From: Candidatus Omnitrophota bacterium
Lineage (GTDB): Bacteria; Omnitrophota; Gorgyraeia; Aquiviventales; Aquiviventaceae
Direction: 5' to 3'
Length of the DNA: 52,926 nucleotides
Assembly: GCA_016193195.1 (NCBI GenBank)
Contig: JACPSQ010000035.1
Span: 2,435 to 55,360, forward strand
The position numbers were made by a program, and so were the translations under genes. This document shows, one piece after another, positions 8,379 to 47,237 of this stretch (the first letter of the stretch is position 1; each line of letters begins with the position of its first letter). Below the pieces are notes generated by a model that was not told the DNA's origin, searched no databases, and was given only the letters and a program-made list of their open reading frames with translations.

Positions 8379-8387
8379 GGAGGACGC

Positions 8388-12442: not shown

Positions 12443-12461
12443 GGTGATGGATGAAGGAAGG

Positions 12462-12857
12462 ATGCGATTGATTCTCCTGGGTGCTGGCTCAATCGGGCGG
12501 CGTCACCTCCAGAATGCCCTGGCGTTGGGGCATGAGGTGGTGGCCGTCGCTGATCCCGATCCCTCGAGCCTGGGGCTGGTCCGACGCCAGTGGCACATCC
12601 CCGTGCTGACGGCAGACGTCTCGGAGGCGTTTCGACAGCGGGCCGAGGCGGCGGTGATCTGTTCGCCGACCGTAGAGCATGTGTCGCAGGCTCGGTGGGC
12701 GGTGCGCGAGGGCCTCCATGTGCTTGTTGAGAAACCCCTTTCGCACACGCTGGATCAGGTGGATGAACTGATTGCGGAAGCGGCTGCCGCCCAGCGGGTT
12801 GTCCTCATCGGATGTAACCTGCGGTTCTTCCCAAGCTTGCAGGGGAGTGCTCCTTGA
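12462..12857 (+). pseudogene. Gfo/Idh/MocA oxidoreductase, N-terminal Rossmann fragment ending at a frameshift/deletion
   Basis: ATG 12462 is preceded by 'gaaggaagg'. The sequence reads 'MRLILLGAGSIGRRHLQNALALGHEVVAVADP...VICSPTVEHVSQARWAVREGLHVLVEKPLS...LIGCNLRFFPSLQ', then GSAP-stop. The matching C-terminal domain continues in another frame (next feature). Confidence 0.7.
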
Positions 12858-14931
12858 CTGGATCCACGAGTTTGATTATCTGCGCTGGTTCTTTGGGCAG
12901 GTCGGGGAGGTGTTCTGCTATACCGGGACCACGGGGACGCTGGATGTGGAGGTCGAGGACTACGCGGAAGTCCTCTTGCGATTTGACGCCGGCGTCGTCG
13001 CGAATGTCCATCTGGACTACCTGCAGCGGACCTACCGTCGCTCATGCGAGATTATCGGCGCTGAGGGCGTGCTCATCTGGGACTACATCGCCCAGACCGT
13101 GACGTGCTACGGCAGGACGGATCGCCAGGTCGAAGTCTTCACAGAGCAGATCGATACAGAACGGAATCAGATGTTCCTTGAAGAAAGGATGAACGGTGAG
13201 GGGGTCTTTCGCTCGGTCAGCGTGATTGCCGACATGGCCCTGTCGTATGAGGGATCGTATGATCTGGCCTTGGCGACCGTGGAGGCCGCCGCGGAGGCCC
13301 ATGCAGGCGCCATCAATTTTCAGATTTTCCTCGCGGATGAGTTGGCCGTGCCAGGCTACCACTATTACCCCTTGTATACCCGGCTGGAATTGCCGCCCGA
13401 ACGCTGGGCGAGCCTCATCACTCATGCACATCAGCGTGGCCTGAAGGTTACCGCGAATGTCTTCGGAGCCGCGACGGCCATGTGGCTTGCCGAGGCCGGC
13501 GTCGACGCCTTCAAGGTTCACGCGGCCGATGTCGGCAACCGCCCCTTCCTGCAGCGGATCGGTGCGCTCGGCAAGCCGGTCCTCCTGTCGGCTGGCGGCA
13601 GTACGCTCGGAGAAATCAGCCATGCCCTCCGCGTCCTCCAACAACACGGCGCCCCTGAGGTGGCCCTCCTGGCGGGCGTGCAGAACACCCCGACGGCAGT
13701 GGACGACACCCACCTCGCCCGCATCCGGTTGTTGAAAGAACGCTTCGGCCTACCCGTGGGCTATGCCGATCACCTGGATGCCGACGCCCCTCTGGCTCCC
13801 GTCGTGCCGCTCCTGGCGATTGCAGCCGGTGCTGACTTCGTGGAAAAACACATCACCCTGGCCCGGGCGCTCAAGCGCGGGGACTATGTCTCTGCGCTGA
13901 ACCCGGATGAGTTTGCGGAGTTTGTCTTGCGTCTCCATGAGGCTCGCCGGTGCGTGGGGGTGCCGGGAGGGGATTTGGGAGAAGGGGAGCTCTCCTACCG
14001 AGAGGGCATGAAGAAGCGCGTCGTGGCAAGGCGGAGCCTCGAAGCCGGCCACGCGCTGCGTGAAGAGGATCTGACGCTGCTCAGGACGGACGAACCGAGC
14101 GATCTGTGGACGCTGGAACACGCCGTGGGTCGGGCCGTTTCACGAACGATTTCCCAATACGGCTCGATCGGCGAGCGCGATCTCTCGGCTCGTCCTGACG
14201 CTCTCAAACGGCTCGTGGCGGTGCTGTTGTGCCGGGCGAGTTCCTCCCGGCTGTATGCCAAACCGCTTCAGCGCGTCGGGGACAAGACGATCCTCGAGCA
14301 TCTCATTGGCCAGATCCGCTTGATCCCACGCCTTGACGAGATCATCCTGGCTATCAGTGAAGGGCCGGCGAATGCAGGATTTGTCAAACTGGCCAACCAG
14401 TTGGATCTGGACTATGTCATCGGGGACGAAGAAGACGGGCTGAGCCGCATGCTTCGCGCTGCGGAGTTTGCGCGTGCGGACACCGTGTTTCGCGTCACCA
14501 CAGAGAATCCGTTCTTGCACATCGAGAACATCAACCAGCTCATCGAGACGCATGCGGAGCGCCAATCGGATTTGACCTATTGCGACCGGCTGCCGGAAGG
14601 GACGTTTTCGGAGCTGGTGGAGCTGTCCGCCTTGCGGCGGTCCTATGAGCGGGGAACCAGACGCCACCGCAGCGCCTGGGTCAATCTCTATATCCGGGAG
14701 CACCCGGAGCAGTTCCGCATCGCGACCCTGCTGCCGCCTGAGGAACTGCAGCGTCCGGAGATCAGGCTGACCGTGGATTATCCGGAGGACCTGATCGTCG
14801 CGCGCAAGGTCTATGAGGCCTTCGACGGCCGGATGCCGATCCCCATCCGCTCGATCATCAGGTTTCTGGACGAGCATCCGGAGATCAAGGCGATCAACCA
14901 AGGCCTGGAAGTTGGGGCGCTGCCCGTCTGA
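12772..14931 (+). CDS. Fusion ORF: Gfo/Idh/MocA C-terminal remnant + NeuB/SpsE-like synthase with SAF domain + SpsF/PseF-type cytidylyltransferase
   Basis: 'GVLLDWIHEFDYLRWFFG...EDYAEVLLRFDAGVVANVHLDY' is the Gfo C-terminal domain. 'VIADMALSYEG...AINFQIF...LLSAGGSTLGEI...VGYADHLD...FVEKHITL' plus the SAF-like 'RVVARRSLEAGHALREEDL' is NeuB-like. 'VAVLLCRASSSRLYAKPLQRVGDKTILEHLI...VIGDEEDGLSRML...FRVTTENPF...RLTVDYPEDL' is the cytidylyltransferase. The functional start is uncertain: TTG 12772 per the ORF track, and the internal ATG 13189 would give a NeuB-like+CT protein. Confidence 0.75.
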   Translation: MRKRLPPSGLSSSDVTCGSSQACRGVLLDWIHEFDYLRWFFGQVGEVFCYTGTTGTLDVEVEDYAEVLLRFDAGVVANVHLDYLQRTYRRSCEIIGAEGVLIWDYIAQTVTCYGRTDRQVEVFTEQIDTERNQMFLEERMNGEGVFRSVSVIADMALSYEGSYDLALATVEAAAEAHAGAINFQIFLADELAVPGYHYYPLYTRLELPPERWASLITHAHQRGLKVTANVFGAATAMWLAEAGVDAFKVHAADVGNRPFLQRIGALGKPVLLSAGGSTLGEISHALRVLQQHGAPEVALLAGVQNTPTAVDDTHLARIRLLKERFGLPVGYADHLDADAPLAPVVPLLAIAAGADFVEKHITLARALKRGDYVSALNPDEFAEFVLRLHEARRCVGVPGGDLGEGELSYREGMKKRVVARRSLEAGHALREEDLTLLRTDEPSDLWTLEHAVGRAVSRTISQYGSIGERDLSARPDALKRLVAVLLCRASSSRLYAKPLQRVGDKTILEHLIGQIRLIPRLDEIILAISEGPANAGFVKLANQLDLDYVIGDEEDGLSRMLRAAEFARADTVFRVTTENPFLHIENINQLIETHAERQSDLTYCDRLPEGTFSELVELSALRRSYERGTRRHRSAWVNLYIREHPEQFRIATLLPPEELQRPEIRLTVDYPEDLIVARKVYEAFDGRMPIPIRSIIRFLDEHPEIKAINQGLEVGALPV

Positions 14932-14933
14932 CG

Positions 14934-16217
14934 ATGCGCGACTCGCATTCGCAGGAGTGGCTCGCCCGCAGCCGCCAGGTGATTCCCGGTTGCACACAAA
15001 CGTTCAGCAAAGGTCCTACGCAGTTCGTGCAGGGCGCCTCGCCAGCCTTCCTCGTCCGCGGGCGCGGCAGTCACGTCTGGGACGTGGATGGCCAGGAGTA
15101 TCTCGATTACTCGATGGCCCTAGGGCCGGTCATTCTGGGATATCGCGATCCGGTCGTCACCAAGGCGGTGAAACGGCAACTAGAGTCTGGGACGATCTTT
15201 TCACTGCCACATCCACTTGAAGTCGAGGTCGCCGAACTGCTCACCCAGGTTGTCCCATGCGCCCAGATGGTGCGATTCGCCAAGAACGGCTCTGATGCGA
15301 CCGCGGGCGCGGTGAGACTCGCCAGGGCCGTGACAGGACGGGATCTCATCGCGTGCTGTGGCTACCATGGGAATCAGGACTGGTACATTGGGACGACCAC
15401 GCGCAATCGGGGCGTGCCCGAATCGGTTCGACGCTTGACCATCCCGTTTGTCTATAACGACATTGACAGTCTTGCGCGGATCTTCGCCGAGCATCCCCAC
15501 CAGGTTGCTGCGGTGATCATGGAACCGGTAGGCCTTGAGCCGCCGCGCGAGCAGTTTTTGGAACAGGTACGCGACCTGACGCATCGGGAAGGCGCGGTCC
15601 TCATCTTTGATGAAGTGCTGACAGGATTCCGCGTGGCGCTGGGTGGGGCGCAGGAGTACTTCGGCGTCACACCTGACCTGGCCTGCTTCGGCAAGGCCAT
15701 GGCGAACGGCTACCCCCTGTCAGCCGTGGTCGGACGACGGGAGATCATGGAAGCGTTTGAAGAGGTCTTCTTCTCGTTTACGTTCGGGGGGGAAGCGCTC
15801 TCGCTGGCCGCGGCGAAGGCGACGATCACAACGCTGCGCAGCCACGCGATCATTCCGCAGTTGTGGGAACATGGTCGTCGCCTTCAAGACGGATTCAACC
15901 GACTGGCGGCTCAGTTCGGTCTTGCGCAGCGCGTCGTCTGTGAGGGACTGCCGCCGCGGACGATGGTGAGCTTCACCGATGGGACCGGAGCTGAGTCGCT
16001 GCCAGTGAAGAGCTTGTTTCAACAGGAGTGTCTGACGCGCGGCGTGCTGTTTTCAGGAAGCCACAACCTGTGCGCCAGCCACACTCGGGAAGACGTGGAA
16101 CAGACCCTCCGGGTGTATCGGGAAGCGATGGCGGTCGTGGCAGAGGCCGTGGCGGCTGGCGATGTCCTGGAGCGGCTGCAGGGTACGCCGGTGCAGCCGG
16201 TCTTCCGTCGCGCCTAG
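14934..16217 (+). CDS. Class III (HemL/glutamate-1-semialdehyde aminomutase-like) PLP aminotransferase
   Basis: 'RGRGSHVWDVDGQEYLDYSMALGPVILGY', 'FDEVLTGFRVALGGAQEYFGVTPDLACFGKAMANGYPLSAVVGRREIM' (Lys in FGKAM). Confidence 0.9.
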   Translation: MRDSHSQEWLARSRQVIPGCTQTFSKGPTQFVQGASPAFLVRGRGSHVWDVDGQEYLDYSMALGPVILGYRDPVVTKAVKRQLESGTIFSLPHPLEVEVAELLTQVVPCAQMVRFAKNGSDATAGAVRLARAVTGRDLIACCGYHGNQDWYIGTTTRNRGVPESVRRLTIPFVYNDIDSLARIFAEHPHQVAAVIMEPVGLEPPREQFLEQVRDLTHREGAVLIFDEVLTGFRVALGGAQEYFGVTPDLACFGKAMANGYPLSAVVGRREIMEAFEEVFFSFTFGGEALSLAAAKATITTLRSHAIIPQLWEHGRRLQDGFNRLAAQFGLAQRVVCEGLPPRTMVSFTDGTGAESLPVKSLFQQECLTRGVLFSGSHNLCASHTREDVEQTLRVYREAMAVVAEAVAAGDVLERLQGTPVQPVFRRA

Positions 16218-16230
16218 CATCAGGTCATCC

Positions 16231-18102
16231 ATGCGGATCGTATTCCTGGGAAATAACTGGGTCGCGTGGCAGGCGCTTCGCTGGTTGAAGGCCCAAGGCG
16301 AATTGATCGTGGGATTAGTGGTGCATCCGCCCCACAAGCAGCGCTATGGCGAGGAGCTGCTCAGCACCGTGGCAGGTGATGCGACGAAGTGCTTTGACGG
16401 CTCGCGGCTGCGGGAGCCGGGAACGATTGCGGCCATTCGGGATCTTCAGGTTGAGATGGCCGTGTCCGTCTCGTTTGGTTACCGCTTGGATCCGTCGTTC
16501 CTGGCGCTGTTCCCGCGCGGGGTCATCAACCTCCATGCAGGCTACCTCCCGTACAACCGGGGCACGCATCCCAACATCTGGAGCATTGTCGAAGGGACCC
16601 CGGCTGGCGCGACGCTCCATTACGTCGATGCCGGGATCGACACGGGAGACATTATTGCACAACGAGCGATTCCAGTGGAGCCAACGGACACGGGTGAGAC
16701 GCTGTATCGAAAGCTTGAACGAGTCTGCATGGAGCTGTTGATGGCAACGTGGCCGTCAATTCGCGACGGCACGGCACCTCGGCACCCACAGCCGTCAGGA
16801 GGCACGGCGCATCAGCGGCGGGATGTGGAGCGCATCGATGAGATCGCACCCGAGCGCCGGTATACAGCTAGGGAATTGATCGACATCCTTCGCGCACGGA
16901 CCTTCCCTCCCTACCCCGGAGCCTATCTCCGGCATGGGGGGCAGAAGATCTCCCTGCGTCTTTCTGCCGCCAAGGAAGACCACCCCGCCCCATGGCTTCA
17001 GCCAACGATTGATATCGGGTGCCGGCGTATTGGTGCTGGCTATCCAACCTACATCGTTGCGGAGATTTCAGCGAATCACAACCAGGACTTTGAGCTGGCC
17101 GTGAAACTGCTTCAGGCGGCCAAGGCTGCCGGGGCGGATGCGGTGAAGCTGCAAACCTACACCCCAGAGACCATGACGATTCCTTGTCACCGCGAGCCGT
17201 TTCAGATCAAGGGCACCCTGTGGGATGGACAGACCCTCTACGATCTCTACCGCCGAGCGTACACGCCGTGGGAGTGGCACCCAAAGCTGAAAGCGGTCGC
17301 GAACGAGATGGGTCTCGATCTGTTTTCGACCGCCTTTGACGCCACGGCTGTGGATTTCCTGGAATCCCTGGGGGTGCCGGTTCATAAGGTCGCTTCGTTT
17401 GAGATGGTGGATCTGGCTTTGTTGGCGAAGATGGCCCTGACCGGCAAGCCGGTGATCCTCTCGACAGGGATGGCAACCTTCCAGGAGATCGCTGAAGCGG
17501 TGCAGACCGTTCGCGGGGTGGGTGCGACGACACAAGTCGCGCTGCTCAAGTGCACAAGTGCCTATCCCGCACTTCCTGAAGAGATGAACCTGCGTGCCAT
17601 CCCGCACTTGACCGAGCAGTTTCAGGTACCCGTCGGCCTCTCGGATCACACCCTGGGCACGTCCGTTGCACTTGCCGCAGTCGCGCTTGGCGCCTGCATG
17701 GTGGAGAAGCATTTGACCCTCTCTCGCTCTGTTGCCACGCCGGATGCGGCCTTTTCCCTTGAGCCCGACGAGTTCAAGGCGATGGTGAAAGGGGTTCGGG
17801 AGGTGGAGCGGGCCCTGGGAGAGGTGCGTTATGGAGTCAGTCGTGGGGAGACCCAGAGCCAGGTCTTCCGGCGTTCCCTGTTCGTGGTGAGAGGGATGAA
17901 AGCCGGAGAGGTGTTTTCAGAGCGGAATGTCCGGTCGATCCGGCCGGGTTATGGGCTCCACCCCCGATACCTGAAGGACGTGTTGGGGCGGCAGGCGAGG
18001 TGTGATATTGCTGGGGGGACACCCTTCGCGTGGAAACTGGTGGACCCAGCGGGAGCAGAGGCTGCCTCGCCGGAAGAACCGAGTGCCAAGCGTGTGACCT
18101 GA
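16231..18102 (+). CDS. pseI: Fusion: Fmt-like N-formyltransferase domain + pseudaminic acid synthase (PseI/NeuB family) with SAF domain
   Basis: I prefer ATG 16231 ('MRIVFLGNNWVAWQALRWL'). The formyltransferase triad context is 'INLHAGYLPYNRGTHPNIWSIVEGTPAGATLHYVDAGIDTGDII'. The synthase part starts around 17005: 'TYIVAEISANHNQDFELAVKLLQAAKAAGADAVKLQTY', 'VGLSDHTLG', 'MVEKHLTL', and SAF 'SLFVVRGMKAGEVFSERNVRSIRPG'. Confidence 0.85.
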   Translation: MRIVFLGNNWVAWQALRWLKAQGELIVGLVVHPPHKQRYGEELLSTVAGDATKCFDGSRLREPGTIAAIRDLQVEMAVSVSFGYRLDPSFLALFPRGVINLHAGYLPYNRGTHPNIWSIVEGTPAGATLHYVDAGIDTGDIIAQRAIPVEPTDTGETLYRKLERVCMELLMATWPSIRDGTAPRHPQPSGGTAHQRRDVERIDEIAPERRYTARELIDILRARTFPPYPGAYLRHGGQKISLRLSAAKEDHPAPWLQPTIDIGCRRIGAGYPTYIVAEISANHNQDFELAVKLLQAAKAAGADAVKLQTYTPETMTIPCHREPFQIKGTLWDGQTLYDLYRRAYTPWEWHPKLKAVANEMGLDLFSTAFDATAVDFLESLGVPVHKVASFEMVDLALLAKMALTGKPVILSTGMATFQEIAEAVQTVRGVGATTQVALLKCTSAYPALPEEMNLRAIPHLTEQFQVPVGLSDHTLGTSVALAAVALGACMVEKHLTLSRSVATPDAAFSLEPDEFKAMVKGVREVERALGEVRYGVSRGETQSQVFRRSLFVVRGMKAGEVFSERNVRSIRPGYGLHPRYLKDVLGRQARCDIAGGTPFAWKLVDPAGAEAASPEEPSAKRVT

Positions 18103-27449: not shown

Positions 27450-28441
27450 TGCTGCCAAACCCAGAGCTCGTGCAGCAGCTCTTTCAGGCGTACTATGCGA
27501 CTGAGCCAGCCCGTCAGGAGGCCTACGTCTCATCCCATTGGGCCGACTACAGCGGCCAGTTCGACGTCATCATGGACTCCGAGGGCAGCATCCGCAAGTT
27601 GGTGGGCAGAGGGTTTGGGGGCATGACCACGCGCAATCCGCTGGAGGTCCTGGTTCAGTATGCCGGCCACCTCTCGTATCTCTCCTGGCTCCCGAATCGC
27701 CGGGAGATCCTGGCCTTGATGCGGGTCGCTCAACCGGTCTGCCTGGCGATGGGGTTTTTCCTCTCCTTCGATGCCTTCAGGCAATTGTGTGCCTTGGCGC
27801 TCATCCGAGGGTGGATGAGTCCTGCGGTGCGTGCAAAACGTTTAACCGTCCTGATGATCGGGGACGGGTACGGATTCCTCTCGTCCATGGTGAAGACCCT
27901 CTACCCCAGGGCAACGCTCGTGCTGGTGGATATCGGCCGAACCCTCTTGTTCCAGAGCATCTACTGTCAGCGGGCGCACCCGACCGCCAGGCATTACGGG
28001 ATGACTGGGGATCGGCTCAACGAGGCCGCAACGCTGGCCGACCACGATTTCATCTATTGTCCGACGGAATACCTCGATGCCGTGCGGCCCTTGCGCTACG
28101 ACCTCGCGGTGGCGATCGCCTCCCTGCAGGAAATGAACGCCGCGACCGTGGAGCGCTACTTTCGGTTCTTGAGGGACCGTCTGCACGAGGACCATCTCTT
28201 CTACTGCTGCAACCGGGAATCCAAGGTCCTGCGGGGAGGCGAGGTCTCGACGTTCGCCGGGTATCCGTGGGATCCGCGCGATCGCCACCTTGTGGATGAG
28301 CGTTGTCCGTGGTACCAGTATGCCTGTTCCTGGCGGACGTGCGGCCCGGGGCCTCGCCTCTTCGGTCTGAGGGTTCCGTTCATCAACGCCTTTGACGGGC
28401 CGTTTCGGCATCGTCTTTCGATCCTAGCTCGGAGGTCGTGA
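27446..28441 (+). CDS. Putative SAM-dependent (sugar O-) methyltransferase
   Basis: ATG 27446 makes an ATGA overlap with the GT2 stop. The class I motif-I-like stretch is 'LTVLMIGDGYGFLSSMVKTLYPRATLVLVDIG'. The remainder is not confidently assignable. Confidence 0.55.
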   Translation: MMLPNPELVQQLFQAYYATEPARQEAYVSSHWADYSGQFDVIMDSEGSIRKLVGRGFGGMTTRNPLEVLVQYAGHLSYLSWLPNRREILALMRVAQPVCLAMGFFLSFDAFRQLCALALIRGWMSPAVRAKRLTVLMIGDGYGFLSSMVKTLYPRATLVLVDIGRTLLFQSIYCQRAHPTARHYGMTGDRLNEAATLADHDFIYCPTEYLDAVRPLRYDLAVAIASLQEMNAATVERYFRFLRDRLHEDHLFYCCNRESKVLRGGEVSTFAGYPWDPRDRHLVDERCPWYQYACSWRTCGPGPRLFGLRVPFINAFDGPFRHRLSILARRS

Positions 28442-30291
28442 TGGGGTCTTCGGGATTGATGATCGGCTCCCGTCTCGTTGACGAGCAGCACCCGCTCCTC
28501 ATCGCCGAGATCGCCTCGGCGCACGACGGTCAGGTGGAGCAGGCCTGTGCGCTGGTCCGGGCGGCGGCCGATGGGGCAGGCGAGGCCGTCAAATTTCAAC
28601 TGGTGATCGCGGAGGAATTGCTCACGCCCTCCCACCCGGACTTCGAGATGTTCCATCGCCTGGAACTCAAGCTGCAGGACTGGCAGACAGTGGTGGGGGA
28701 AGCGCGCCAACGGGGATTGATCTCGAGTGCCGATGTGTTCGGGGAGCAGAGCCTTCGGCTCGCCCAAGACCTCGGGATCCAGCTGCTGAAGATCCCCTCG
28801 TCCAGCTTGACGGATCCGGTCCTGGTTCCCCTCGTGGCCTCGCGGGGTGTGCCCACCCTGCTCTCTGTTGCGGGGGCGACGGAGGAGGAAATCGCGTGGG
28901 TGGTTGAGCAATTCCGGCAGGCCGGGCATCGCGCGTTTGTCCTGATCCACGGCTTTCAAGGCTTTCCGACCCCGCTGGCGGCGACGCACCTCAACAGGCT
29001 GTCTTGGTTGCGTCAGCGCTTTGCATGCCCTGTGGGACTTTCCGATCACCTCCCGGCCGACACGGCGGTCGCGCGACACCTGCCGCTTGTCGCGGTGGGG
29101 TTGGGCGCATCGGTGATTGAGAAGCACCTGACGCAAAGCCGCAGCCGGCGAGGTCCTGACTGGGTGTCCGCGCTCGAACCGGCTGAATTTGGGCAGCTTC
29201 AGGAGGCGCTGCGACACATAAGTGCGGCGTTCGGTCCTGAGGAGGGAGCGTGCTGGATGGAGGGGGAAGCGCGGTACCGCCGGCAGATGCGTCGGCAGCT
29301 CGTGGCTGGGCGGACCCTTCAGGCCGGCGAGATCCTCACCGCCGACAAGATCACTCAACGTCGCGCCATCGCGCCGGGCAGCATGGATCCCTGGTTTTTC
29401 CCTCGGCGGGTGGCGGGCAAGACCTTGCGGCGGTCGTTGTCACCGGATGAGGCGATCACGTGGGACTCGCTGAGCGATCCCCTCGTGGCGGTCCTGATCG
29501 CCGTCCGCATGAAGTCGGCCCGGCTTCCTCGCAAGGCGCTGGCGGATCTTGCCGGAAAGCCCGTCATCGAACGATTGGTGGAGCGGATGAAAACCGCCCG
29601 CCATCCCCAGCGGCTGGTGCTCTGCACGTCCACCCATGCCGATGACCGGGTCTTGGTGGAGCTGGCCAGGCGGTTGGGGATCGAGTGGGTCTGCGGGGAG
29701 GAAGAGGATGTCATGGCGCGATTCCTCCGCGCCGCCGAACAGACGCAGGCCGAGCTCATCGTGCGCGTGACAGGGGATAACCCGCTGACGGACGCCGAGA
29801 CGATGGATCGGATGATCGTCAGCCACCTCGAGCGCGACGTGGAGTACACCTACACGGACGACCTCCCCTTCGGCACCCGCCCCGAGATCATCTCCGTGGA
29901 AGCCCTGCGGCGCGTCCAGGCCTTGGCGGAAGATCCTGGGCAGACCGAGTACATGACCGCCTACCTCAAGCAGCCCGAGGCCGTGAAGTCCTACCGGTAT
30001 GTCGTGCAGGACGCGCAGCTGGTTCGACCCCACTACCGGCTCACCCTGGACACCCCTGAGGATCTCGCAGTGTTGCAGCAGATCTACGCGCGGTTCGGCC
30101 CCGACGGATCAACCGTGTCGTTGCGGGAGGTGATTCGGCTGCTGGATCAATCGCCGGAGCTGGTGGCGATGAATGCCGCCGTGCAGCAGCGTCAGGTCGC
30201 CGGCGTGATCAATGCGCGTCTGCGGGCTCCACGCGCGCCTGCGGAGGCAGGCGTCGTGGACATTGCAGGAGGGGATGAGGATGCTCGGTAG
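28438..30291 (+). CDS. Fusion: NeuB/SpsE-like synthase with SAF domain + SpsF/PseF-type cytidylyltransferase
   Basis: 'PLLIAEIASAHDGQVEQACALVRAAADGAGEAVKFQLV', 'LLSVAGATEEEI', 'VGLSDHLPAD', 'VIEKHLTQ', and SAF 'QLVAGRTLQAGEILTADKI'. From about 29480: 'VAVLIAVRMKSARLPRKALADLAGKPVIERLV', 'VCGEEEDVMARFL', 'VRVTGDNPL', 'RLTLDTPEDL'. Confidence 0.85.
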   Translation: MMGSSGLMIGSRLVDEQHPLLIAEIASAHDGQVEQACALVRAAADGAGEAVKFQLVIAEELLTPSHPDFEMFHRLELKLQDWQTVVGEARQRGLISSADVFGEQSLRLAQDLGIQLLKIPSSSLTDPVLVPLVASRGVPTLLSVAGATEEEIAWVVEQFRQAGHRAFVLIHGFQGFPTPLAATHLNRLSWLRQRFACPVGLSDHLPADTAVARHLPLVAVGLGASVIEKHLTQSRSRRGPDWVSALEPAEFGQLQEALRHISAAFGPEEGACWMEGEARYRRQMRRQLVAGRTLQAGEILTADKITQRRAIAPGSMDPWFFPRRVAGKTLRRSLSPDEAITWDSLSDPLVAVLIAVRMKSARLPRKALADLAGKPVIERLVERMKTARHPQRLVLCTSTHADDRVLVELARRLGIEWVCGEEEDVMARFLRAAEQTQAELIVRVTGDNPLTDAETMDRMIVSHLERDVEYTYTDDLPFGTRPEIISVEALRRVQALAEDPGQTEYMTAYLKQPEAVKSYRYVVQDAQLVRPHYRLTLDTPEDLAVLQQIYARFGPDGSTVSLREVIRLLDQSPELVAMNAAVQQRQVAGVINARLRAPRAPAEAGVVDIAGGDEDAR

Positions 30292-31351
30292 GTATTATCA
30301 AGAAGTGGGATGGCTCAGGCGCAGGGTCGCCGCGGCGAGAGAGTTGTGGAAGCGCCGATTCGAGTGGCGGTTTCTCCTGTACCGGGCGAAGTTTCATTGG
30401 TCGCATCGGCTGGATCTGCCCAGCGCCTTTCCCGCCCACCTCGATATCGAGACCACCGACGCGTGCAATCTCCGTTGCATCATGTGCGTGCAGGGCATCG
30501 GGGAAGGAGTCAAGGATACCGGCATGATCGAGATGGACTTTGCGAAACGGCTCATTGATGAAGGGGCTCGCAATGGCCTCTACTCGATCAAGTTCAACTG
30601 GCGGGGCGAACCCGCCCTTCATTCGGGATTGGCGGAGCTGGTGCGCTATGCCAAAGCGCGGGGGATCCTGGAGGTGCAATTCAACACCAACGGGATTCCC
30701 TACACGGAGTCCAAAATCAGGGAGCTGGTGTTGTCCGGCCTTGATCGGGTGATCTTCTCCATGGATGGCGCGTCGAAGGACACGTATGAGCGCATCCGCG
30801 TGGGAAGCAGCTACGACAAGCTCGTCGAGAACGTGAAGTTCTTTCATGCCATCCGGGAGGCCCTGGGCCGGGAACGGCCGTTCATCCGCATTCAGATGGT
30901 TCGGATGAAAGCCAACCAGCACGAGGTCGACCAGTTCGTGGAGATGTGGAAGCCCTTCGTGGACGACATTCGGATTGAGGATGTGTCGGACCGCGGCCAA
31001 GGTGAGCAACTCTCCGTGGGGGACTGGGTCACGACAGGCCGGAAGCGCTGCCCGCAACCCTGGCAGCGCATGGTCGTCTCTCGAGATGGGAAGGTCCTGC
31101 CGTGCTGTGCGGACTGGCATCGCGAGTTCATCATCGGGGACGCGACCCAGGAATCCCTGAAGGCGATCTGGCGTGGCAAGCGGATGGAGATGATGCGCCA
31201 GGTGCAGCGGGAGGTCCGGTTGGATCAGGTCAGCCCCTGTCGCCAGTGCTACGTCAAGGAGAGTTTTGTGTGGAAGCGGCGTCCCACGCCGGCGGCGAGC
31301 GAGCCGCCCGAGACCCCGCAGCCGCATGAGGACGCCGACGTCACGGTGTAA
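30275..31351 (+). CDS. Radical SAM enzyme with a partial SPASM/Twitch-like C-terminal Cys domain
   Basis: The CX3CX2C motif is 'ETTDACNLRCIMCVQG'. 'IKFNWRGEPAL' is the GGEP-like element. The C-terminus reads 'CPQPWQRMVVSRDGKVLPCCADW...SPCRQCY'. Start is ATG 30275 or 30281, the latter after 'ggagggga'. It overlaps the upstream stop. Confidence 0.85.
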   Translation: MRMLGRYYQEVGWLRRRVAAARELWKRRFEWRFLLYRAKFHWSHRLDLPSAFPAHLDIETTDACNLRCIMCVQGIGEGVKDTGMIEMDFAKRLIDEGARNGLYSIKFNWRGEPALHSGLAELVRYAKARGILEVQFNTNGIPYTESKIRELVLSGLDRVIFSMDGASKDTYERIRVGSSYDKLVENVKFFHAIREALGRERPFIRIQMVRMKANQHEVDQFVEMWKPFVDDIRIEDVSDRGQGEQLSVGDWVTTGRKRCPQPWQRMVVSRDGKVLPCCADWHREFIIGDATQESLKAIWRGKRMEMMRQVQREVRLDQVSPCRQCYVKESFVWKRRPTPAASEPPETPQPHEDADVTV

Positions 31352-31355
31352 CCCG

Positions 31356-32492
31356 ATGCCGACGGTGAGGATTGGACAGAAGCTGATCGGCCCCGGCCAA
31401 CCGGTGTTCGTCATTGCGGAGGCCGGGTGTAATCACGGATGCAATCTCCAGGTGGCGAAACGGATGGTCCGTCAGGCGGCGTGGGCCGGGGTGGATGCGA
31501 TCAAATTCCAGACCTACAAAGCCGAGCTGCTGGCGACGCGGACCGCCCCGACGTACTGGAAGCGGACGCCGGGTGCCCCGCGAACCCAATTTGAATTCTT
31601 CAAGCAGTTGGATCATTTCGATCGTGCGGACTACGCGGCGTTGGCGGCGGAGTGCCGCCGCGCCGGTCTGCTCTTTTTATCGACGCCGTGGGATTTCCAC
31701 AGCGCGGATATGCTTGATGAGCTCGGGGTGCCGGCCTTCAAGATCGGTTCCGCCGATCTGACCTACCTGCCGCTCATCCGACACTGCGCTAGCAAGGGAA
31801 AGCCCATCCTGCTCTCAACCGGCGCGGCGACGATCGAAGAGATTGAGGAGGCGGTCCGGACGGTCCGAGCCGTCGGGAACCGCCAGGTGATCCTGTTACA
31901 CTGCATCCTGGCCTATCATACGCTGCCTCACGATGTGCATCTCGCGATGATCGGAGAGCTGCAGCGCCGGTTTCCGGACTATCCGGTGGGATTTTCGGAT
32001 CATACGATTGCGGATGAACACCTGACGATCCAGACCGCTGCGGTCGCGCTGGGGGCCTGCGTGGTTGAGAAGCACTATACCTTAAACAAGCGTGCCCCTG
32101 GAAACGACCACTGGCACTCCCTGGAGCCGCGTGAGTTCAGACAGATGATCGCTAACGCTCAGCTCGTGCAAGCGGCGATGGGGCGCAGTGGTCCACGGGT
32201 GCCGCTGCCGTGCGAGCGACCCGCGAGACGGTTTGCCCGTCGCAGTCTCGTGGCGCTGCATGACATCCCCAAAGGCTCCGTCATCACGGCCTCCGATCTG
32301 ACCTGCAAGCGGCCTGGGACCGGCATTTCACCAGGACAGCTCGACCGGGTGGTCGGAGCACGAGCCAAGCGAACGATTCTCGAGGACACGGTGATCACAT
32401 GGTCCATGGTGGATGGATGCCATCCCACACGCCTCCCGGTGCGTGGCGGGACATCTGAGGGAGCGAGGCGCCGTGAGCCCATTGCCGCTTGA
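31356..32492 (+). CDS. NeuB-family nonulosonic acid synthase with SAF domain
   Basis: I prefer ATG 31356 ('MPTVRIGQKLIGPGQPVFVIAEAGCNHGCNLQVAKRMVRQAAWAGVDAIKFQTY'). Also 'LLSTGAATIEEI', 'VGFSDHTIAD', 'VVEKHYTL', and SAF 'SLVALHDIPKGSVITASDLTCKRPG'. Confidence 0.85.
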   Translation: MPTVRIGQKLIGPGQPVFVIAEAGCNHGCNLQVAKRMVRQAAWAGVDAIKFQTYKAELLATRTAPTYWKRTPGAPRTQFEFFKQLDHFDRADYAALAAECRRAGLLFLSTPWDFHSADMLDELGVPAFKIGSADLTYLPLIRHCASKGKPILLSTGAATIEEIEEAVRTVRAVGNRQVILLHCILAYHTLPHDVHLAMIGELQRRFPDYPVGFSDHTIADEHLTIQTAAVALGACVVEKHYTLNKRAPGNDHWHSLEPREFRQMIANAQLVQAAMGRSGPRVPLPCERPARRFARRSLVALHDIPKGSVITASDLTCKRPGTGISPGQLDRVVGARAKRTILEDTVITWSMVDGCHPTRLPVRGGTSEGARRREPIAA

Positions 32493-35400
32493 GATCGATC
32501 CCCCGCACGTCACCATTCATCTCCAAGGCGGACGGCAGATCGGCATGGGGCATGTCGTCCGGATGCTCTGGCTGGCCCAGAGCCTCACGGCGCGGGGGCT
32601 GGCGGTGGAGATGCTCCTCCGAGGAGAGCCGGAAGCCGCCGCCATGATTCGGCAGGCGGGCTTCCCGGTGCAGGCCTATTCTGCCGGAGCGTCTGCCGTG
32701 GTCACGGTGGAGCGTTACCTCGACCAGCCGGGTCCGCAACCCTCGGTCTGGGTCAACGATTGTCTGACGGTGAGCCCCTCGGTGCACGCGGCGCTTCAGC
32801 GTCGAGCGATTCCCATCGTTTCGCTGGATGACGAGGGCCGAGGCCTGAGCCGTCTGGATCTTGTCGTCAATGCCATGCCCGCGTTCTGGCAAGAGGCGCT
32901 TCCCACAGGGGCGCAGATGTATCAAGGCCCCGAGTACATGATTCTCAATCCGCTGGTCAAGGTGTATCATGACCGGCCCAGACCAATCCGCACGCGGCCC
33001 AGCCAGGCCGTGGTGACGCTGGGGGGCAGCGATCCGCATGGGGTGATCTTCAACGTGCTCCGGGCTCTCGCGACCATGCCCTCCGCGCTTGAATGGCATG
33101 TGTTTGTCGGGCCGCTCTTTGCCCATCGTCGCGCGCTCGACCGGTGGCAGAAGCGCCTGGCTGGGCAGGTGTGTCTCCGCTGGCATGACGGGCAGTCCGA
33201 AGTGATCCCGACGTTTGCCCAAGCGGACGTGGCGATCTGCGCGAGCGGCCACACCCTCTTTGAAATGCTGAGTGTGGGCACGCCGGTCTTGGCAATCGCG
33301 AACGCCAGGCACGAAATCGTCAACGGCAGATATTTTGCCTCACTGGGTGCCTGCCATTTCCTTGGGCTGCATACCGCTGTGACCCCAGGTCGCATCGGGC
33401 AGGCGGTTCGTCAATTACTGGCGGATCCAACCCAGCGGGCGCGTCTCTCGCAGCGGGGCCAGTCCTACATCGATGGACGTGGGGCTGAGCGGGTGACGGA
33501 GCTGCTCGAACGTCTCGCCAGGCGTCCCGTGTCGGCCAGACGCGTGGTGGAGGCGGTGGAGCAACAGGCTCACGCGGCAGCTCCGACTGGACCGACGGCC
33601 CGGGAAGACGGACACCCCGGCGTGTTGCTGTGCGATCGGTTGGAGCCTCTGATGAGGCTCTCGAGGCGGCATGGGCTCTCGCAGGCGCGATTCATTGTGC
33701 TGTCAGAGACTTCGGAACACGCTGCCATCCGCGGATGGCTTCGTGAGCGGCTCGGGGCGGAGGAACTGCCCTATGTGGAATTGTCGCGGGCGCGCCGGCA
33801 GGCATTCCAGCCTCGGTATATCGAGTTCATTGGGCGGTTCAACCGGACGCACCGCTCGCCGTTTTGGTTGGCGATGCCGTTTACGGCCAAGAGCATGCTC
33901 TCAACGGGGTTGTGCCGCAATACGTTCCAGTTCCTCCTCATCGTGGAGTTGCTCCAGACCAGCGACCGGCCACTGATCGTGATCACTCATAACCGGACCA
34001 TGGCTGACCAGGTGGTGTTATGGGCACGGGTCCAGCCCCGATGGGTGTGCAATGCGGTCCGTGGCCGTTCGGTCCTGAAACGCCTCTTCAAACGTTTCAC
34101 CCCGCTGGCGATCCTTGTGGCGATGATTCGGACCTCGGTGGTGTGGGTCCTGAGCAGGCGATTCCGGCTGGACGGGGACCGGTGGCGTGATGCCACCATC
34201 GTGGTGACGACATTTCCGAATTCGTCCATCCAGCTTCCGGTCTACCGAGAAGCCTATTTTGGGTCCCTGCCGGCCTCCTTGACTCAACACGGCCAGCGGG
34301 TGGTGCTGTTTGCCTTGTATGCGGAGCGCGCGCTGTCGCACATCCTGGCGCTGCGCCGTGTCAGCCAAGGCCTGCCGGTGGTCCCGCAGGAGGCCTACCT
34401 GACCTGGCCAGATCTCTTGGCCTGTGGCGTTCGGGCCCTCATACAGTGGATGAAGCGGTTTCCGTATCGTGAGCCGGTGCAGATCGATGGGATCAGCGTG
34501 GACGTCTTGGTCGAGCGGGAAATCGCTGAGAGCTGCCAGTCGAGGAGCCTCTTCTGGCATTTGTGCATCGCCGCGGCGGCTCGACGGCTGGGTCAGCGCC
34601 TTGCCCCTGCCAGGTGCTTGTATCCGTTCGAGAACCGCGCGTGGGAGAAAATGTTCCTGATCGGCCTGCGGGAAGCCTCGCCCCATACCGAGACGATTGG
34701 CTATCAACATACCGTCTTTACCTTCGCGCATACGAACCTGTTCTTCGGGGAAGGCGAGGCGAGACTCACGCCGCTCCCCAATTGCATTCTCACGGCTGGA
34801 GAGGTCACGAAGCAGCGTCTTGAAGAGCATGGTCGGTATCCGGACGGTTTGTTGAGGCTGGGGTGTGCCTTGTATCAACGGCAACCGCAATCGCTGGAGC
34901 GCCGGACGTCCCGTCCGGTTCAGCTCACGAATCTCTTGGTCGCGCTCAGCAACGACCGAGAGGAGTATGTCCGCGTGTTGCAGTTTTTGCGGGAAGCGCT
35001 GGCGGACCTCCACGGCTATCAGATTCGGCTCCGCCCGAACCCGGGGCTTGGCGTCCGGCTCCTGGAGGAGGCCCTGGCGACGGTCCGCCACCCCGCAGGG
35101 GGCCGCTACGATGTCAGCCGGACATCCTTGCCTGAAGACCTGCGCTGGGCTCACGTCGTGCTCTACGCCTCCTCCTCGGTCGCCCTCGCTGCGCTCAGCC
35201 ATGGGATCCCGGTCATCTTTGTGGATGTCGGGAAATTCCTCGATCCTGATCCGTGCCTGGCGATGCACGATCTCAAGTGGGCGGTGGACGAGCCTTCAGC
35301 GTTGCATCCGACCCTCCGCCGGATCGCGGCCCTCCCCGATGAGATGTTTGAGCTCCAACAACGGCGCGCCCTCGCGTATGTTGAGCGCTATTTCCCTGCG

Positions 35401-35514
35401 CCCACCGAGGCGCGGCTCCAGGCCTTCAGGCAGGCGGAGGACGCACGCGACCCCGACGTGGCTGAGGCGGCGGCTGACGCGCGACCGGAAGCTGGGCTGA
35501 CCACGGTTGCATAA
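32473..35514 (+). CDS. Fusion: PseG-like (GT28-C-type) domain + ~650-aa region of unknown function
   Basis: GTG 32473 is in frame with the ORF-track start 32413, which lies deep inside neuB. The PseG-like part is 'VTIHLQGGRQIGMGHVVRMLWLAQSL', 'VVTLGGSDPHGV', 'ADVAICASGHTLFEMLSVGTPVLAI'. After about aa 400 I see no motif I can assign, except the GT-B-like 'HVVLYASSSVALAALSHGIPVIFVD'. Confidence 0.75.
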   Translation: MSPLPLEIDPPHVTIHLQGGRQIGMGHVVRMLWLAQSLTARGLAVEMLLRGEPEAAAMIRQAGFPVQAYSAGASAVVTVERYLDQPGPQPSVWVNDCLTVSPSVHAALQRRAIPIVSLDDEGRGLSRLDLVVNAMPAFWQEALPTGAQMYQGPEYMILNPLVKVYHDRPRPIRTRPSQAVVTLGGSDPHGVIFNVLRALATMPSALEWHVFVGPLFAHRRALDRWQKRLAGQVCLRWHDGQSEVIPTFAQADVAICASGHTLFEMLSVGTPVLAIANARHEIVNGRYFASLGACHFLGLHTAVTPGRIGQAVRQLLADPTQRARLSQRGQSYIDGRGAERVTELLERLARRPVSARRVVEAVEQQAHAAAPTGPTAREDGHPGVLLCDRLEPLMRLSRRHGLSQARFIVLSETSEHAAIRGWLRERLGAEELPYVELSRARRQAFQPRYIEFIGRFNRTHRSPFWLAMPFTAKSMLSTGLCRNTFQFLLIVELLQTSDRPLIVITHNRTMADQVVLWARVQPRWVCNAVRGRSVLKRLFKRFTPLAILVAMIRTSVVWVLSRRFRLDGDRWRDATIVVTTFPNSSIQLPVYREAYFGSLPASLTQHGQRVVLFALYAERALSHILALRRVSQGLPVVPQEAYLTWPDLLACGVRALIQWMKRFPYREPVQIDGISVDVLVEREIAESCQSRSLFWHLCIAAAARRLGQRLAPARCLYPFENRAWEKMFLIGLREASPHTETIGYQHTVFTFAHTNLFFGEGEARLTPLPNCILTAGEVTKQRLEEHGRYPDGLLRLGCALYQRQPQSLERRTSRPVQLTNLLVALSNDREEYVRVLQFLREALADLHGYQIRLRPNPGLGVRLLEEALATVRHPAGGRYDVSRTSLPEDLRWAHVVLYASSSVALAALSHGIPVIFVDVGKFLDPDPCLAMHDLKWAVDEPSALHPTLRRIAALPDEMFELQQRRALAYVERYFPAPTEARLQAFRQAEDARDPDVAEAAADARPEAGLTTVA

Positions 35515-46250: not shown

Positions 46251-47237
46251 ATGCGGGTGTTGGTGACAGGGGGAGCGGGGTTCATCGGTTCGCACCTCGC
46301 GGAGGCCCTGGTGGCGCGGGGCGATCAGGTGACGATTCTTGACAACCTCTCCACCGGCCGCTACGAGCATGTCGCGCATCTGGACGGCCGACCGGGATTC
46401 CAGATCGTCACCGGGACCATCCTCAACGAACCGCTGGTCGATAAGCTGGTGGAACGCTGCGACGTGGTCTTTCACCTGGCGGCGGCGGTGGGGGTGGAGC
46501 TCATCATTAAGAAGCCCTTGGAGTCCTTGATGACGAATATCCGGGGCAGCGAAGTGGTCTTGGAGATGGCCCACCGCTACCGCAAGAAAGTGCTGATTGC
46601 CTCGACCTCGGAGATCTACGGCAAGAATACCAACGGGCCGCTGCGCGAAGACACCGACCGGATCCTCGGCTCGCCGCTCAAAAGCCGATGGAGCTACTCG
46701 ACGTCCAAGGCGGTCGACGAAATCCTCGCGTATATCTACTGGAAGGAGAAGGGCGTGCCGACGGTCATCGTCCGGCTCTTCAACACGGTCGGCCCCCGCC
46801 AGAGCGGGGCGTATGGCATGGTGATCCCGCGGTTCGTGGCCAACGCCCTGGCGGGCACGCCGCTGCAGGTGCACGGGACGGGCAAGCAGTCGCGGTGCTT
46901 CCTGCATGTGAGGGATGTGGTGGAGGCCGTGCTGAAACTCGCGGACCATCCGGCGGCGGTCGGAGAGGTCTTCAACCTCGGAAGCCAAGAAGAAGTGACG
47001 ATTGAGGAGCTAGCCCGGCGGGTGATCCGCCTGACGAAGAGCGCCTCGACGATCGAGCGCATTCCCTACGAACAGGCCTATGAGGAGGGCTTCGAGGATA
47101 TGCCTCGCCGCGTTCCCGATATCAGCAAGATCCGATCGCTGATTGGATTTACACCGACCATGAACCTTGATCAGATCATCGCTAGCGTGGTGGACAGCCT
47201 GCGTCCCTCCGTGCCGTCGAACGCCCTGCCCGTGTAG
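46251..47237 (+). CDS. NAD-dependent sugar-nucleotide epimerase/dehydratase, UDP-glucuronate decarboxylase (ArnA C-terminal/UXS)-like
   Basis: 'MRVLVTGGAGFIGSHLAEAL', 'VFHLAAAVGV', 'SRWSYSTSKAVDEILAYIYW' (compare the ArnA 'RWIYSVSKQLLDRVIWAY' segment as I remember it), 'RLFNTVGPRQ'. Confidence 0.8.
   Translation: MRVLVTGGAGFIGSHLAEALVARGDQVTILDNLSTGRYEHVAHLDGRPGFQIVTGTILNEPLVDKLVERCDVVFHLAAAVGVELIIKKPLESLMTNIRGSEVVLEMAHRYRKKVLIASTSEIYGKNTNGPLREDTDRILGSPLKSRWSYSTSKAVDEILAYIYWKEKGVPTVIVRLFNTVGPRQSGAYGMVIPRFVANALAGTPLQVHGTGKQSRCFLHVRDVVEAVLKLADHPAAVGEVFNLGSQEEVTIEELARRVIRLTKSASTIERIPYEQAYEEGFEDMPRRVPDISKIRSLIGFTPTMNLDQIIASVVDSLRPSVPSNALPV

Follow-up and report, generated by a model that had tools for sequence, protein, structure and literature searches.

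A Twitch-type radical SAM gene linked to a separate NeuB synthase clade and a cytidylyltransferase, a candidate for CMP-ulosonate biosynthesis in Omnitrophota

The stretch of DNA analysed here (the window, 52,926 nucleotides) carries on its forward strand a radical SAM gene, hereafter R, located between two NeuB paralogues, as stated in the original prediction. The upstream gene (28438..30291, + strand), characterised with Pfam, NCBIfam and a clade assignment, is a fusion comprising a synthase of the NeuB_b clade (HMM coordinates approximately 28459-29472), a SAF domain and a CTP_transf_3 domain (approximately 29482-30198). The downstream gene (31356..32492, +) encodes a NeuB+SAF synthase of the NeuB_a clade, the closest solved relative of which is SpsE of B. 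subtilis. Next comes a gene for a 1033-aa protein (32413..35514, +) with a PseG-like NDP-sugar hydrolase at residues 33-299 and a surface-carbohydrate region of the TIGR04326 (LIC13510) type at residues 552-983; in the relative L009, too, NeuB_a is followed by a protein of the TIGR04326 type. Further along the window, an extended-SDR gene (46251..47237, +) matches the SDR325 profile with 230 bits and is of the type that adjoins the cassette in relatives. A second NeuB_b copy, at 13213-14178, has no adjoining Twitch-type R and carries a Gfo/Idh/MocA domain instead.

The most likely reading frame of R, judged from the sequence, is 30281..31351 (+). The original prediction had placed the gene at 30275-31351, which translates into 358 aa. 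The stop codon, at 31349-31351, stands; for the start, a Shine-Dalgarno sequence (AGGAGG, 30267-30272) lies 8 nt from ATG 30281 and only 2 nt from ATG 30275, which favours the former. An identical database protein (P0002, 100% identity) is 356 aa long, and a further alternative start is found at ATG 30212. Since the fusion ORF ends at 30291, R overlaps its upstream neighbour, and a 4-nt gap separates it from the NeuB_a start codon at 31356, both as described earlier. Genes abut or overlap throughout 28438-35514, so that no intergenic space is left for a precursor-peptide gene, in agreement with the earlier remark that none lies near R.

The CX3CX2C site expected to bind the radical SAM [4Fe-4S] cluster is encoded at 30464..30487 (+) as C64-N-L-R-C68-I-M-C71, the CNLRCIMC motif noticed originally. 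The only other cysteines of R are C259, C277, C278, C322 and C325, which make up the Twitch region C259-x12-G272-x4-C277-C278 ... C322-x2-C325 (31049..31249, +). All eight cysteines, those of the CX3CX2C site included, are invariant in an alignment of 40 sequences (A1), and the 73 related genome loci, which take in a paralogous subfamily with approximately 30% identity, have the pattern C-x17-CC...CxxC without exception; this conservation indicates that the pattern is not due to chance. The alignment also exhibits invariant arginine or lysine residues at R37, K106, R110, K127, R158, R175, R205, R240, R256, R265 and R308. The 33 residues past C325 contain no cysteine, and with the five listed above this means that the CX2CX5CX3C part of a full SPASM domain is absent. 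Where the seven-Cys SPASM motif reads CX9-15GX4C ... CX2CX5CX3C ... C, R exhibits only CX12GX4C(C) ... CX2C, and the X5C, X3C and final C are missing from R and from all 73 loci, which bears out the original count of too few cysteines. Pfam detects two domains only, Radical_SAM at residues 58-191 (PF04055, 59.8 bits for a cut-off of 29.5) and SPASM at residues 259-326 (59 bits), the latter profile being still matched because it spans the part common with Twitch domains. Four auxiliary-cluster ligands are predicted from this sequence, together with one extra invariant cysteine, C278.

The AlphaFold2 model of R (pLDDT 87.5, pTM 0.87) exhibits the partial (beta/alpha)6 TIM barrel of radical SAM enzymes, and a Foldseek search with it returned 169 matches at E<=0.001, the top 50 of which are all radical SAM enzymes. 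BtrN, the 2-deoxy-scyllo-inosamine dehydrogenase of the butirosin pathway (PDB 4m7t/4m7s), is the best match among solved structures both in sequence (phmmer E 2e-9) and in fold (Foldseek E 6e-13, TM 0.76 on BtrN). When the Twitch segment was searched alone, BtrN was the sole significant match (E 8e-5), the remaining ones having E values of about 1, and EpeE was absent from the sequence matches of this region. C259, C277, C322 and C325 align gap-free and one-to-one with positions 169, 187, 232 and 235 of the 4m7s chain, the four Twitch cysteines that presumably ligate the auxiliary cluster of BtrN. R possesses the cysteines for exactly one such Fe-S cluster, and the alignment and the model confirm the predicted Twitch-like, rather than full SPASM, nature of the C-terminal domain.

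The CX3CX2C motif and the Twitch domain are common to R and BtrN, and both proteins occur in small-molecule carbohydrate settings. Nevertheless, they share only approximately 18% identity, BtrN exhibits CF where R has the invariant CC, and R carries an N-terminal extension of 50 residues, folded as two helices in the model and containing a conserved YR(R)KW motif. Aminoglycoside genes are not near R, the partners of which are NeuB_b and CTP_transf_3; with such an identity and no 2-deoxystreptamine gene context, R is not a BtrN orthologue (DOIA dehydrogenase). Because of this low identity and of the additional helical extension, the reaction type of BtrN is not transferable to R. Further sequence matches are the sugar/nucleoside enzymes BlsE (cytosylglucuronate decarboxylase) and DesII (TDP-4-amino-4,6-dideoxyglucose deaminase/dehydrogenase), both radical SAM enzymes, whose substrates are sugars, a sugar acid among them, bound to a nucleoside or nucleotide. 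In the sequence and in the fold matches they come after BtrN, from second place on. Only their radical SAM core is matched; their C-terminal parts do not align with the Twitch cysteines of R. Other fold matches comprise SuiB, SkfB, CteB, anSME, EpeE and CTP-bound viperins.

With regard to the partners of R, the metal and PEP residues known from the NeuB of N. meningitidis (NmNeuB) are conserved in the NeuB_b domain, namely E25, K53, K129, S132, S154, S213, H215, E234, H236, D247 and R314, and the fused cytidylyltransferase, for which the best PDB match is 6oew, keeps the RxxSxRLPxK and TGDNPL motifs. On the basis of these residues, both look active. Gene context was counted in the 65 loci that span 4.5 kb or more, clades and cysteines in all 73. 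A CTP_transf_3 domain is found in 61 of the 65, and the four loci without it are all truncated downstream. The original prediction had paired R with a NeuB synthase, and the co-occurrence with neuB-like genes holds, a synthase being present in 54/65 loci. Nevertheless, the conserved partner is not the downstream NeuB_a, which was rejected in favour of the NeuB_b clade (49/65) and, above all, of CTP_transf_3. NeuB_b is the next domain after R in 43/65 loci, and NeuB_b-CTP3 precedes R, as in the window, in three of them; both NeuB clades are present in 34/73. The common order is SDR, rSAM, NeuB_b, CTP_transf_3, (GT2-CTP_transf_3), NeuB_a, of which the window exhibits a permuted form; the cassette is small, comprising 3-6 genes, five in the Nitrospira cassette of L016. 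R thus has two core partners, the distinct NeuB_b clade of synthases and a cytidylyltransferase resembling KdsB/PseF, and the window carries them as one fusion protein.

The loci belong to Omnitrophota, Nitrospirota, Alpha- and Gammaproteobacteria (including Pelagibacteraceae), Planctomycetota, Patescibacteria and one Firmicute, as well as to DPANN or methanogen archaea. At E<=1e-30 the family comprises over 1,100 sequence clusters, and 37% of the Omnitrophota genomes sampled carry it. Independent sampling of 35 Omnitrophota genomes gave 38 strong matches to the family, 27 of which have a NeuB gene within 10 kb. In one related subfamily with the CC pair (approximately 300 bits), the neighbours are polysaccharide export genes and a CoADR-like flavoprotein, and the contig has no NeuB; the family as a whole therefore extends beyond ulosonate pathways.

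Domain fusions bring R close to the activation step. The window shares the fusion of NeuB_b to CTP_transf_3 with L005, L007 and L010, and CTP_transf_3 is fused to the radical SAM domain in P0152, a protein 36% identical to R that carries the cysteine signature and is encoded on a 2.2-kb contig. Even in relatives without a NeuB gene, CTP_transf_3 directly follows (P0163, P0148, L079-L081). A similar pairing is seen in the spiro-SPASM profile TIGR04321, in which a CTP_transf_3-like N-terminal domain and a radical SAM/SPASM domain form one protein: positions 225-502 match R with 90 bits and positions 15-165 match the upstream cytidylyltransferase with 41 bits. In the window, these domains are split over two genes, and both scores are far below the 250-bit cut-off, so R is not a spiro-SPASM protein. 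The two kinds of fusion lean towards a step of R at or after CMP activation.

Based on these observations, we give an even chance to the reading that R is a BtrN-like radical SAM enzyme with one predicted auxiliary [4Fe-4S] cluster, belonging to a conserved CMP-ulosonate cassette and acting on the ulosonate near its activation. The fold of R, its cysteine ligands, its gene linkage and the domain fusions are results of this analysis; what R acts on, where it attacks and what it makes are inferred, as follows. NeuB_b would condense PEP with an aldose, and the CTP_transf_3 domain would activate the product with CMP. R would cleave SAM reductively, and the resulting 5'-deoxyadenosyl radical would take a hydrogen atom from a carbon of the ulosonic acid, either just before CMP activation or, more likely, just after it. 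With the auxiliary cluster and the invariant C278 assisting, the substrate radical could then be resolved in one of two ways. A hydrogen atom could return from the opposite face, resulting in a net epimerisation as in EpeE or NeoN, or the radical could lose one electron to give a keto or aldehyde sugar, as in BtrN. Tentatively, and with somewhat less confidence than for the reading as a whole, R might be an epimerase or oxidase acting on C-H bonds by radical SAM chemistry, the first of its kind known from the biosynthesis of ulosonic acids.

For the first outcome, a protein cysteine serves as hydrogen donor in the radical SAM sugar epimerase NeoN. For the second, the side-chain alcohol of an ulosonic acid is oxidised around the CMP-activation step in the KdnB/KdnA route of Shewanella to Kdo8N; KdnB belongs, however, to the metal-dependent alcohol dehydrogenases rather than to the radical SAM enzymes, and the R cassette has no aminotransferase as a regular member. 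The extended Twitch domain of EpeE (YydG) houses one auxiliary cluster only; Cys223 of this enzyme quenches the substrate radical, and re-reduction of the thiyl radical by the cluster has been proposed (PMC13012085). This combination may be seen as a precedent for a cysteine hydrogen donor in R, although the substrate of EpeE is a peptide and the likeness of C278 to Cys223 is one of analogy, the two residues not being alignable. C278 could also have a structural role or be an alternative ligand.

It is also conceivable, though on the whole unlikely, that R acts earlier, together with the adjoining extended SDR, and remodels an NDP-hexose or a free aldose to supply the unusual aldose of NeuB_b. 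The reactions would be radical oxidation, deoxygenation, epimerisation or nucleotide elimination, which comes near the original idea that R feeds the adjacent synthase. That idea keeps its footing in the commonest gene order, SDR325, R, NeuB_b, CTP3, which, if colinear with the pathway, would place R before the synthase. An SDR of the dTDP-glucose-dehydratase/GalE/LegB type lies directly upstream of R in 8/28 orthologue loci, a NeuC- or PseG-type hydrolase is missing from most cassettes, and NDP-sugars and cyclitols are the substrates of DesII and BtrN. In contrast, the CTP_transf_3-rSAM fusions and the NeuB-less R-CTP_transf_3 pairs tie R to activation rather than to hexose remodelling, and no SDR is found near the minimal Nitrospira and alphaproteobacterial cassettes. 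The further suggestion that R substitutes for a missing dehydratase or epimerase is unsupported, since relatives keep an SDR beside R: in the closest one (L010, 82% identity), an extended-SDR dehydratase/epimerase lies directly beside the cassette, and the window has its own extended-SDR gene.

In a different scheme, R would oxidise the terminal alcohol of the CMP-ulosonate to an aldehyde, to which NeuB_a would add a second PEP to give a C11-C12 sugar acid. We consider this improbable, and a shade more so that the cassette is an iterative chain-extension line (NeuB_b, R, NeuB_a) leading to a hitherto undescribed kind of CMP-linked C11-C12 sugar diacid. Two active-looking PEP synthases do flank R in the window, the two NeuB clades occur together in the 34 loci mentioned above, and dehydrogenases of the fold class of R yield aldehydes or ketones, with anSME and BtrN among the fold matches. 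Nevertheless, L021, L025, L039, L042 and L062 have no NeuB_a despite approximately 10 kb of sequence on the relevant side, which makes NeuB_a dispensable for the R/NeuB_b/CTP3 core, and NeuB_a is nearest to an ordinary LegI-like SpsE. CMP-activated ulosonic acids longer than C9 have been reported in Magnetospirillum gryphiswaldense (10.64898/2026.04.20.719630); these are C10 compounds of unknown origin (10.64898/2026.04.20.719630), the extra mass of which corresponds to one carbon and not to three. A search seeded with a Rhodospirillaceae orthologue gave only MAG and metagenome sequences, with no named Magnetospirillum homologue of R among the matches listed, and a link of R to these C10 acids was dropped.

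A role as peptide or protein maturase, either of the RiPP type or as an anSME-like activator of a partner enzyme, is very improbable and was rejected, although NCBIfam finds partial N-terminal similarity to metalloenzyme and peptide maturases and SuiB, SkfB, CteB and anSME are among the fold matches. No RRE/PqqD domain accompanies the two Pfam domains, the N-terminal extension being formed of two helices, and no precursor gene is adjacent, there being no intergenic space for one. The auxiliary cysteines are five and not seven or eight, too few for an anSME, and a fusion to a cytidylyltransferase would be unexpected for a maturase. No sulfatase appears in the window annotation or related loci, and RiPP, protease, transporter and sulfatase genes were not seen in any of the contexts examined. 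The original prediction had held that consistent RiPP or sulfatase-maturation contexts would speak against a sugar substrate; sugar contexts were found instead in every locus examined. Least probable of all is a viperin-like modification of the nucleotide itself (CTP or CMP), the product of which the cytidylyltransferase would take: it would fit the linkage of R to CTP-using enzymes and the CTP-bound viperins among its fold matches, but viperins have no auxiliary cluster and are poorer fold matches than BtrN and BlsE, the Twitch region matches BtrN only, and we know of no CMP-sugar with a modified cytidine.

The preferred reading remains that of an enzyme acting on the ulosonate near CMP activation. 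To our knowledge, sialic-acid-like sugars (neuraminic, legionaminic and pseudaminic acids, and Kdo) are made by NAD-, PLP-, acetyl-CoA- and PEP-dependent enzymes, and no radical SAM step has been described in these pathways. A full-text literature search found no paper linking radical SAM/SPASM enzymes to nonulosonic-acid pathways, NeuB or the cytidylyltransferase. The tight linkage of a Twitch radical SAM enzyme with a synthase of a separate clade and with a cytidylyltransferase recurs in phyla ranging from SAR11 and Nitrospira to DPANN archaea, and this cassette points to a radical step in the making of sialic-acid-type surface sugars. Should R indeed catalyse the epimerisation or oxidation of a CMP-sugar at an unactivated carbon, this would represent a new reaction class for Twitch enzymes, and abundant, mostly uncultured microbes would have new sialic-acid-like sugars on their surfaces and flagella.

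The 358-residue translation of 30275-31351 (P0001, whose numbering is used here) exhibits the motif CNLRCIMC at C64/C68/C71. Its only other cysteines form the pattern C259-x12-G272-x4-C277-C278 ... C322-RQ-C325, the last 33 residues being Cys-free. The position of an AGGAGG at 30267-30272 favours the ATG at 30281 as the probable start of the gene, hereafter R (30281-31351, + strand); the identical database protein has 356 residues. The upstream gene ends within R, at 30291, and the stop codon of R (31349-31351) lies 4 nt ahead of the ATG of the next neuB (31356). From 28438 to 35514 each gene overlaps or adjoins the next, and no precursor-peptide-like ORF is present near R. Every element of the sequence description in the original prediction is borne out by the translation, the Cys pattern and the gene borders, including the radical SAM motif, the shortage of C-terminal cysteines for a seven-Cys SPASM motif (five are found, none after C325), the gene overlap and the missing peptide ORF. 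Pfam identifies Radical_SAM (58-191) and SPASM (259-326, 59 bits) and no other domain in P0001. In NCBIfam all matches stay below the model cut-offs, the top ones being partial matches to maturase-type families and to the spiro-SPASM model TIGR04321.

Among all PDB sequences, BtrN is the best match of R (E 2e-9), and C259, C277, C322 and C325 align without gaps with the four cysteines of the BtrN C-terminal domain (4m7s chain positions 169, 187, 232 and 235). BtrN is also the sole significant match of the 96-residue Twitch segment searched alone (E 8e-5, other rows having E ~1). The AlphaFold2 model, made from an alignment of 40 homologues, is confident (pLDDT 87.5, pTM 0.87), and a Foldseek comparison with the PDB ranks BtrN (E 6e-13, TM 0.76 normalised to BtrN) and BlsE first. 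R thus has a predicted fold of the BtrN type, with sites for the radical SAM cluster and for a single auxiliary one. The N-terminal 50 residues are modelled as two helices and not as an RRE. We also collected 73 related loci from one-genome-per-species contigs, a set that takes in a paralogous radical SAM subfamily of only 26-33% identity. C-x17-CC ... CxxC is present in 73/73 of them, and none has the additional cysteines that a two-cluster SPASM motif requires. Ligand alignment and structure prediction, both suggested with the original prediction, agree on Twitch and not SPASM. The 40-sequence alignment shows no variation at any of the eight cysteines or at G272. The second Cys of the doublet, C278, corresponds to a Phe in BtrN. 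Since the CC pattern is kept in this alignment and in all 73 loci, C278 is, as judged from sequence, a hallmark of the family; it is replaced in ~10% of the more distant representatives of the wider family.

A word-index search yielded 289 homologues (E<=0.001), the best 120 of which are 50-82% identical to R, with named sources that are all metagenomes or MAGs. An exhaustive search yielded 1,165 50%-identity clusters (E<=1e-30). Among the sources listed, homologues bear generic names such as 'radical SAM protein' and 'SPASM domain-containing protein'. In six neighbourhoods examined, relatives of R adjoin NeuB and CTP_transf_3 genes: an Omnitrophota MAG, a Pelagibacteraceae, a Nitrospira/alphaproteobacterial contig with fliD and motAB adjoining, a contig with flagellin adjoining, a deltaproteobacterium and a 600-kb contig.

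The 73 loci were profiled with HMMs made from proteins of the window and its relatives. A tree of 107 NeuB domains separates two clades, NeuB_b (including window copies 28459-29472 and 13213-14178) and NeuB_a (31365-32414 and 17011-18042). A CTP_transf_3 domain (CTP3) follows NeuB_b in 52/58 cases, and a GT2-CTP_transf_3 fusion gene precedes NeuB_a in 23/49. The common order, in both radical SAM subfamilies, is (SDR), R, NeuB_b, CTP3, (GT2-CTP3), NeuB_a, (CTP3), where SDR denotes an extended-SDR dehydratase/epimerase-type gene. The permuted order NeuB_b-CTP3, R, NeuB_a is that of the window, of L010 (82% identical), L047 and L049. The recurrent fusion that many cassettes have between NeuB_b-CTP3 and NeuB_a comprises a GT2 glycosyltransferase and a PseF-like cytidylyltransferase in 460 aa (e.g. 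L005 10812-12191, L007 4243-5649, L008 3315-4724, L009 10823-12199), and is absent from the window. The Pelagibacteraceae locus L002 carries both subfamilies, an orthologue and a ~30%-identical paralogue (2508-3584 and 8001-9089), each adjoining a cytidylyltransferase; the cluster also contains carbamoyltransferase, formyltransferase and asparagine-synthase-like genes.

The NeuB counts required >=2.5 kb to one side of R, and the CTP_transf_3 count >=4.5 kb in total; each filter left 65 usable loci. R is directly followed by a NeuB_b domain in 43/65, NeuB_b-CTP3 lies immediately before R in 3/65, and any NeuB_b or any NeuB occurs in 49/65 and 54/65, respectively. A CTP_transf_3-type domain occurs in 61/65, and the four remaining loci all end <=3.2 kb downstream. 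In an independent sample of 35 Omnitrophota genomes that have a family match, a NeuB gene occurs <=10 kb from 27/38 strong matches and <=1.5 kb from 17/38. Because these genomes have only one to seven NeuB genes each, the linkage is far beyond chance, and the co-occurrence with neuB on which the original prediction could be checked holds in both sets. A family match (E<=1e-30) is present in 111/301 Omnitrophota genomes. The expansion in this phylum is strong, with up to six matches in some genomes and tandem pairs (e.g. G024:C24 2685-4579, G242:C3 277247-279189 and G224:C20 13655-15463, as genome:contig). At G043:C4:168000-185000 (L094 7693-10139), a related CC-bearing Twitch radical SAM protein, which scores ~300 bits with the family profile, has a CoADR/Nox-like pyridine-nucleotide-disulfide oxidoreductase as its partner and adjoins Wza/Wzz polysaccharide export genes, on a contig without NeuB.

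The deepest link of R is to the cytidylyltransferase. Positions 225-502 of TIGR04321 match R and positions 15-165 match the upstream cytidylyltransferase domain. One of the 150 best representatives, P0152 (584 aa), joins CTP_transf_3 directly to Radical_SAM and SPASM and has the family Cys signature. For P0163, a D-2-hydroxyacid-dehydrogenase fusion that has lost the second Cys of the doublet, and for P0148, with a CN variant, the next gene encodes CTP_transf_3 and the vicinity lacks NeuB, as in L079-L081. In the wider family, P0167 is an FkbM methyltransferase fusion. Linkage of R to a cytidylyltransferase and to a synthase clade of its own is thus near-obligate, with occasional fusions.

With regard to these partners, NeuB_b keeps E25, K53, Q55, K129, S132, S154, S213, H215, E234, H236, D247 and R314 of N. 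meningitidis NeuB, with the changes N184 to Q, Y186 to F and, in 'EIGINHEG', NH to AH. By these residues it resembles a working PEP-condensing enzyme whose sugar pocket differs. NeuB_a is nearest to B. subtilis SpsE (E 1e-56). The fused cytidylyltransferase, nearest to that of PDB 6oew, keeps RxxSxRLPxK and TGDNPL, as in KdsB.

The window, from an Omnitrophota MAG of 1.04 Mb (64% complete), is a single long glycan island of co-directional genes with four NeuB domains. NeuB-SAF-CTP_transf_3 (28438-30291) and NeuB-SAF (31356-32492) flank R upstream and downstream, and one ORF at 16162-18102 combines a formyltransferase (Formyl_trans_N, N_formyltrans_C) with a NeuB_a-clade NeuB and SAF. The first nonulosonate set (10718-16217) includes an ORF (12772-14931) with an N-terminal Gfo/Idh/MocA C-terminal domain, a NeuB_b-clade NeuB, SAF and CTP_transf_3, without an adjoining Twitch radical SAM gene; it lies between a B12-binding radical SAM gene (10718-12442, upstream) and a class-III aminotransferase gene (14934-16217, downstream). 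What R does in the second set may be done there by an NAD-type oxidoreductase together with an aminotransferase. PseB, PseC, PseG, a GNAT, methyltransferases, glycosyltransferases, a flippase and Wzy are also encoded. The 1033-aa protein 3' of the downstream NeuB (32413-35514) fuses PseG-like and TIGR04326 (LIC13510-type) domains; a TIGR04326 surface-carbohydrate protein also follows NeuB_a in the distant relative L009 (13268-14758). It may be a further cassette member, perhaps the transferase.

NeuB_b would produce an ulosonic acid, its accompanying CTP_transf_3 domain would activate it, and R would take a hydrogen atom from it around the activation step. We consider the chances evenly balanced that R acts at this ulosonate level. 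BtrN-type oxidation needs the auxiliary cluster only. As the invariant C278 of R adjoins a predicted cluster ligand, our slight preference is for epimerisation at an unactivated carbon; oxidation comes a close second. Cys223 of EpeE has been proposed to return the hydrogen atom, its thiyl radical being re-reduced by the cluster (PMC13012085), and the invariant cysteine of R would, by analogy, fit such a role. The NAD-dependent dehydrogenase domain and lost second Cys of P0163, a single case, would fit an oxidise-then-reduce variant.

It is rather unlikely that R acts on a precursor, before the synthase. The common order SDR, R, NeuB_b argues for this, whereas the chain of NeuB_b-CTP3 and CTP3-R fusions suggests the order synthase, activation, R. 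The proposal that R replaces a missing dehydratase/epimerase finds no support, as SDRs co-occur with R: one immediately precedes the fusion gene in the closest relative, one immediately precedes R in 8/28 orthologue loci, and the window has one of the same type at 46251-47237 (+). A UDP-sulfoquinovose-synthase-like protein is encoded two genes 5' of R in L009 (5864-7012; 444 bits to NF041015, cut-off 575), and weak SDR-profile matches of similar length recur at the corresponding place in L014, L015 and L019. These genes hint at a C6-modified hexose precursor.

That NeuB_a extends the chain of the R product is attractive but weakened by its absence from several full-flank loci (L021, L025, L039, L042, L062). 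CMP-activated ulosonic acids whose backbone is elongated to C10, and CMP-linked species without a keto acid, have been reported in Magnetospirillum gryphiswaldense, where biosynthetic genes were not assigned (bioRxiv 10.64898/2026.04.20.719630). Viperin-like modification of the nucleotide is very unlikely, its support from the modelled fold being weak. A peptide or protein maturase, as the partial NCBIfam matches would have it, is very unlikely in view of the Twitch Cys pattern, the N-terminus and the NeuB/CTP_transf_3 contexts.

In the full-text searches made, we found nothing relevant joining radical SAM/SPASM to nonulosonic-acid, legionaminic, pseudaminic, NeuB/synthase or cytidylyltransferase. 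R is a known kind of enzyme, a Twitch radical SAM protein, which would be new in a pathway class where no radical step is known to have been described.
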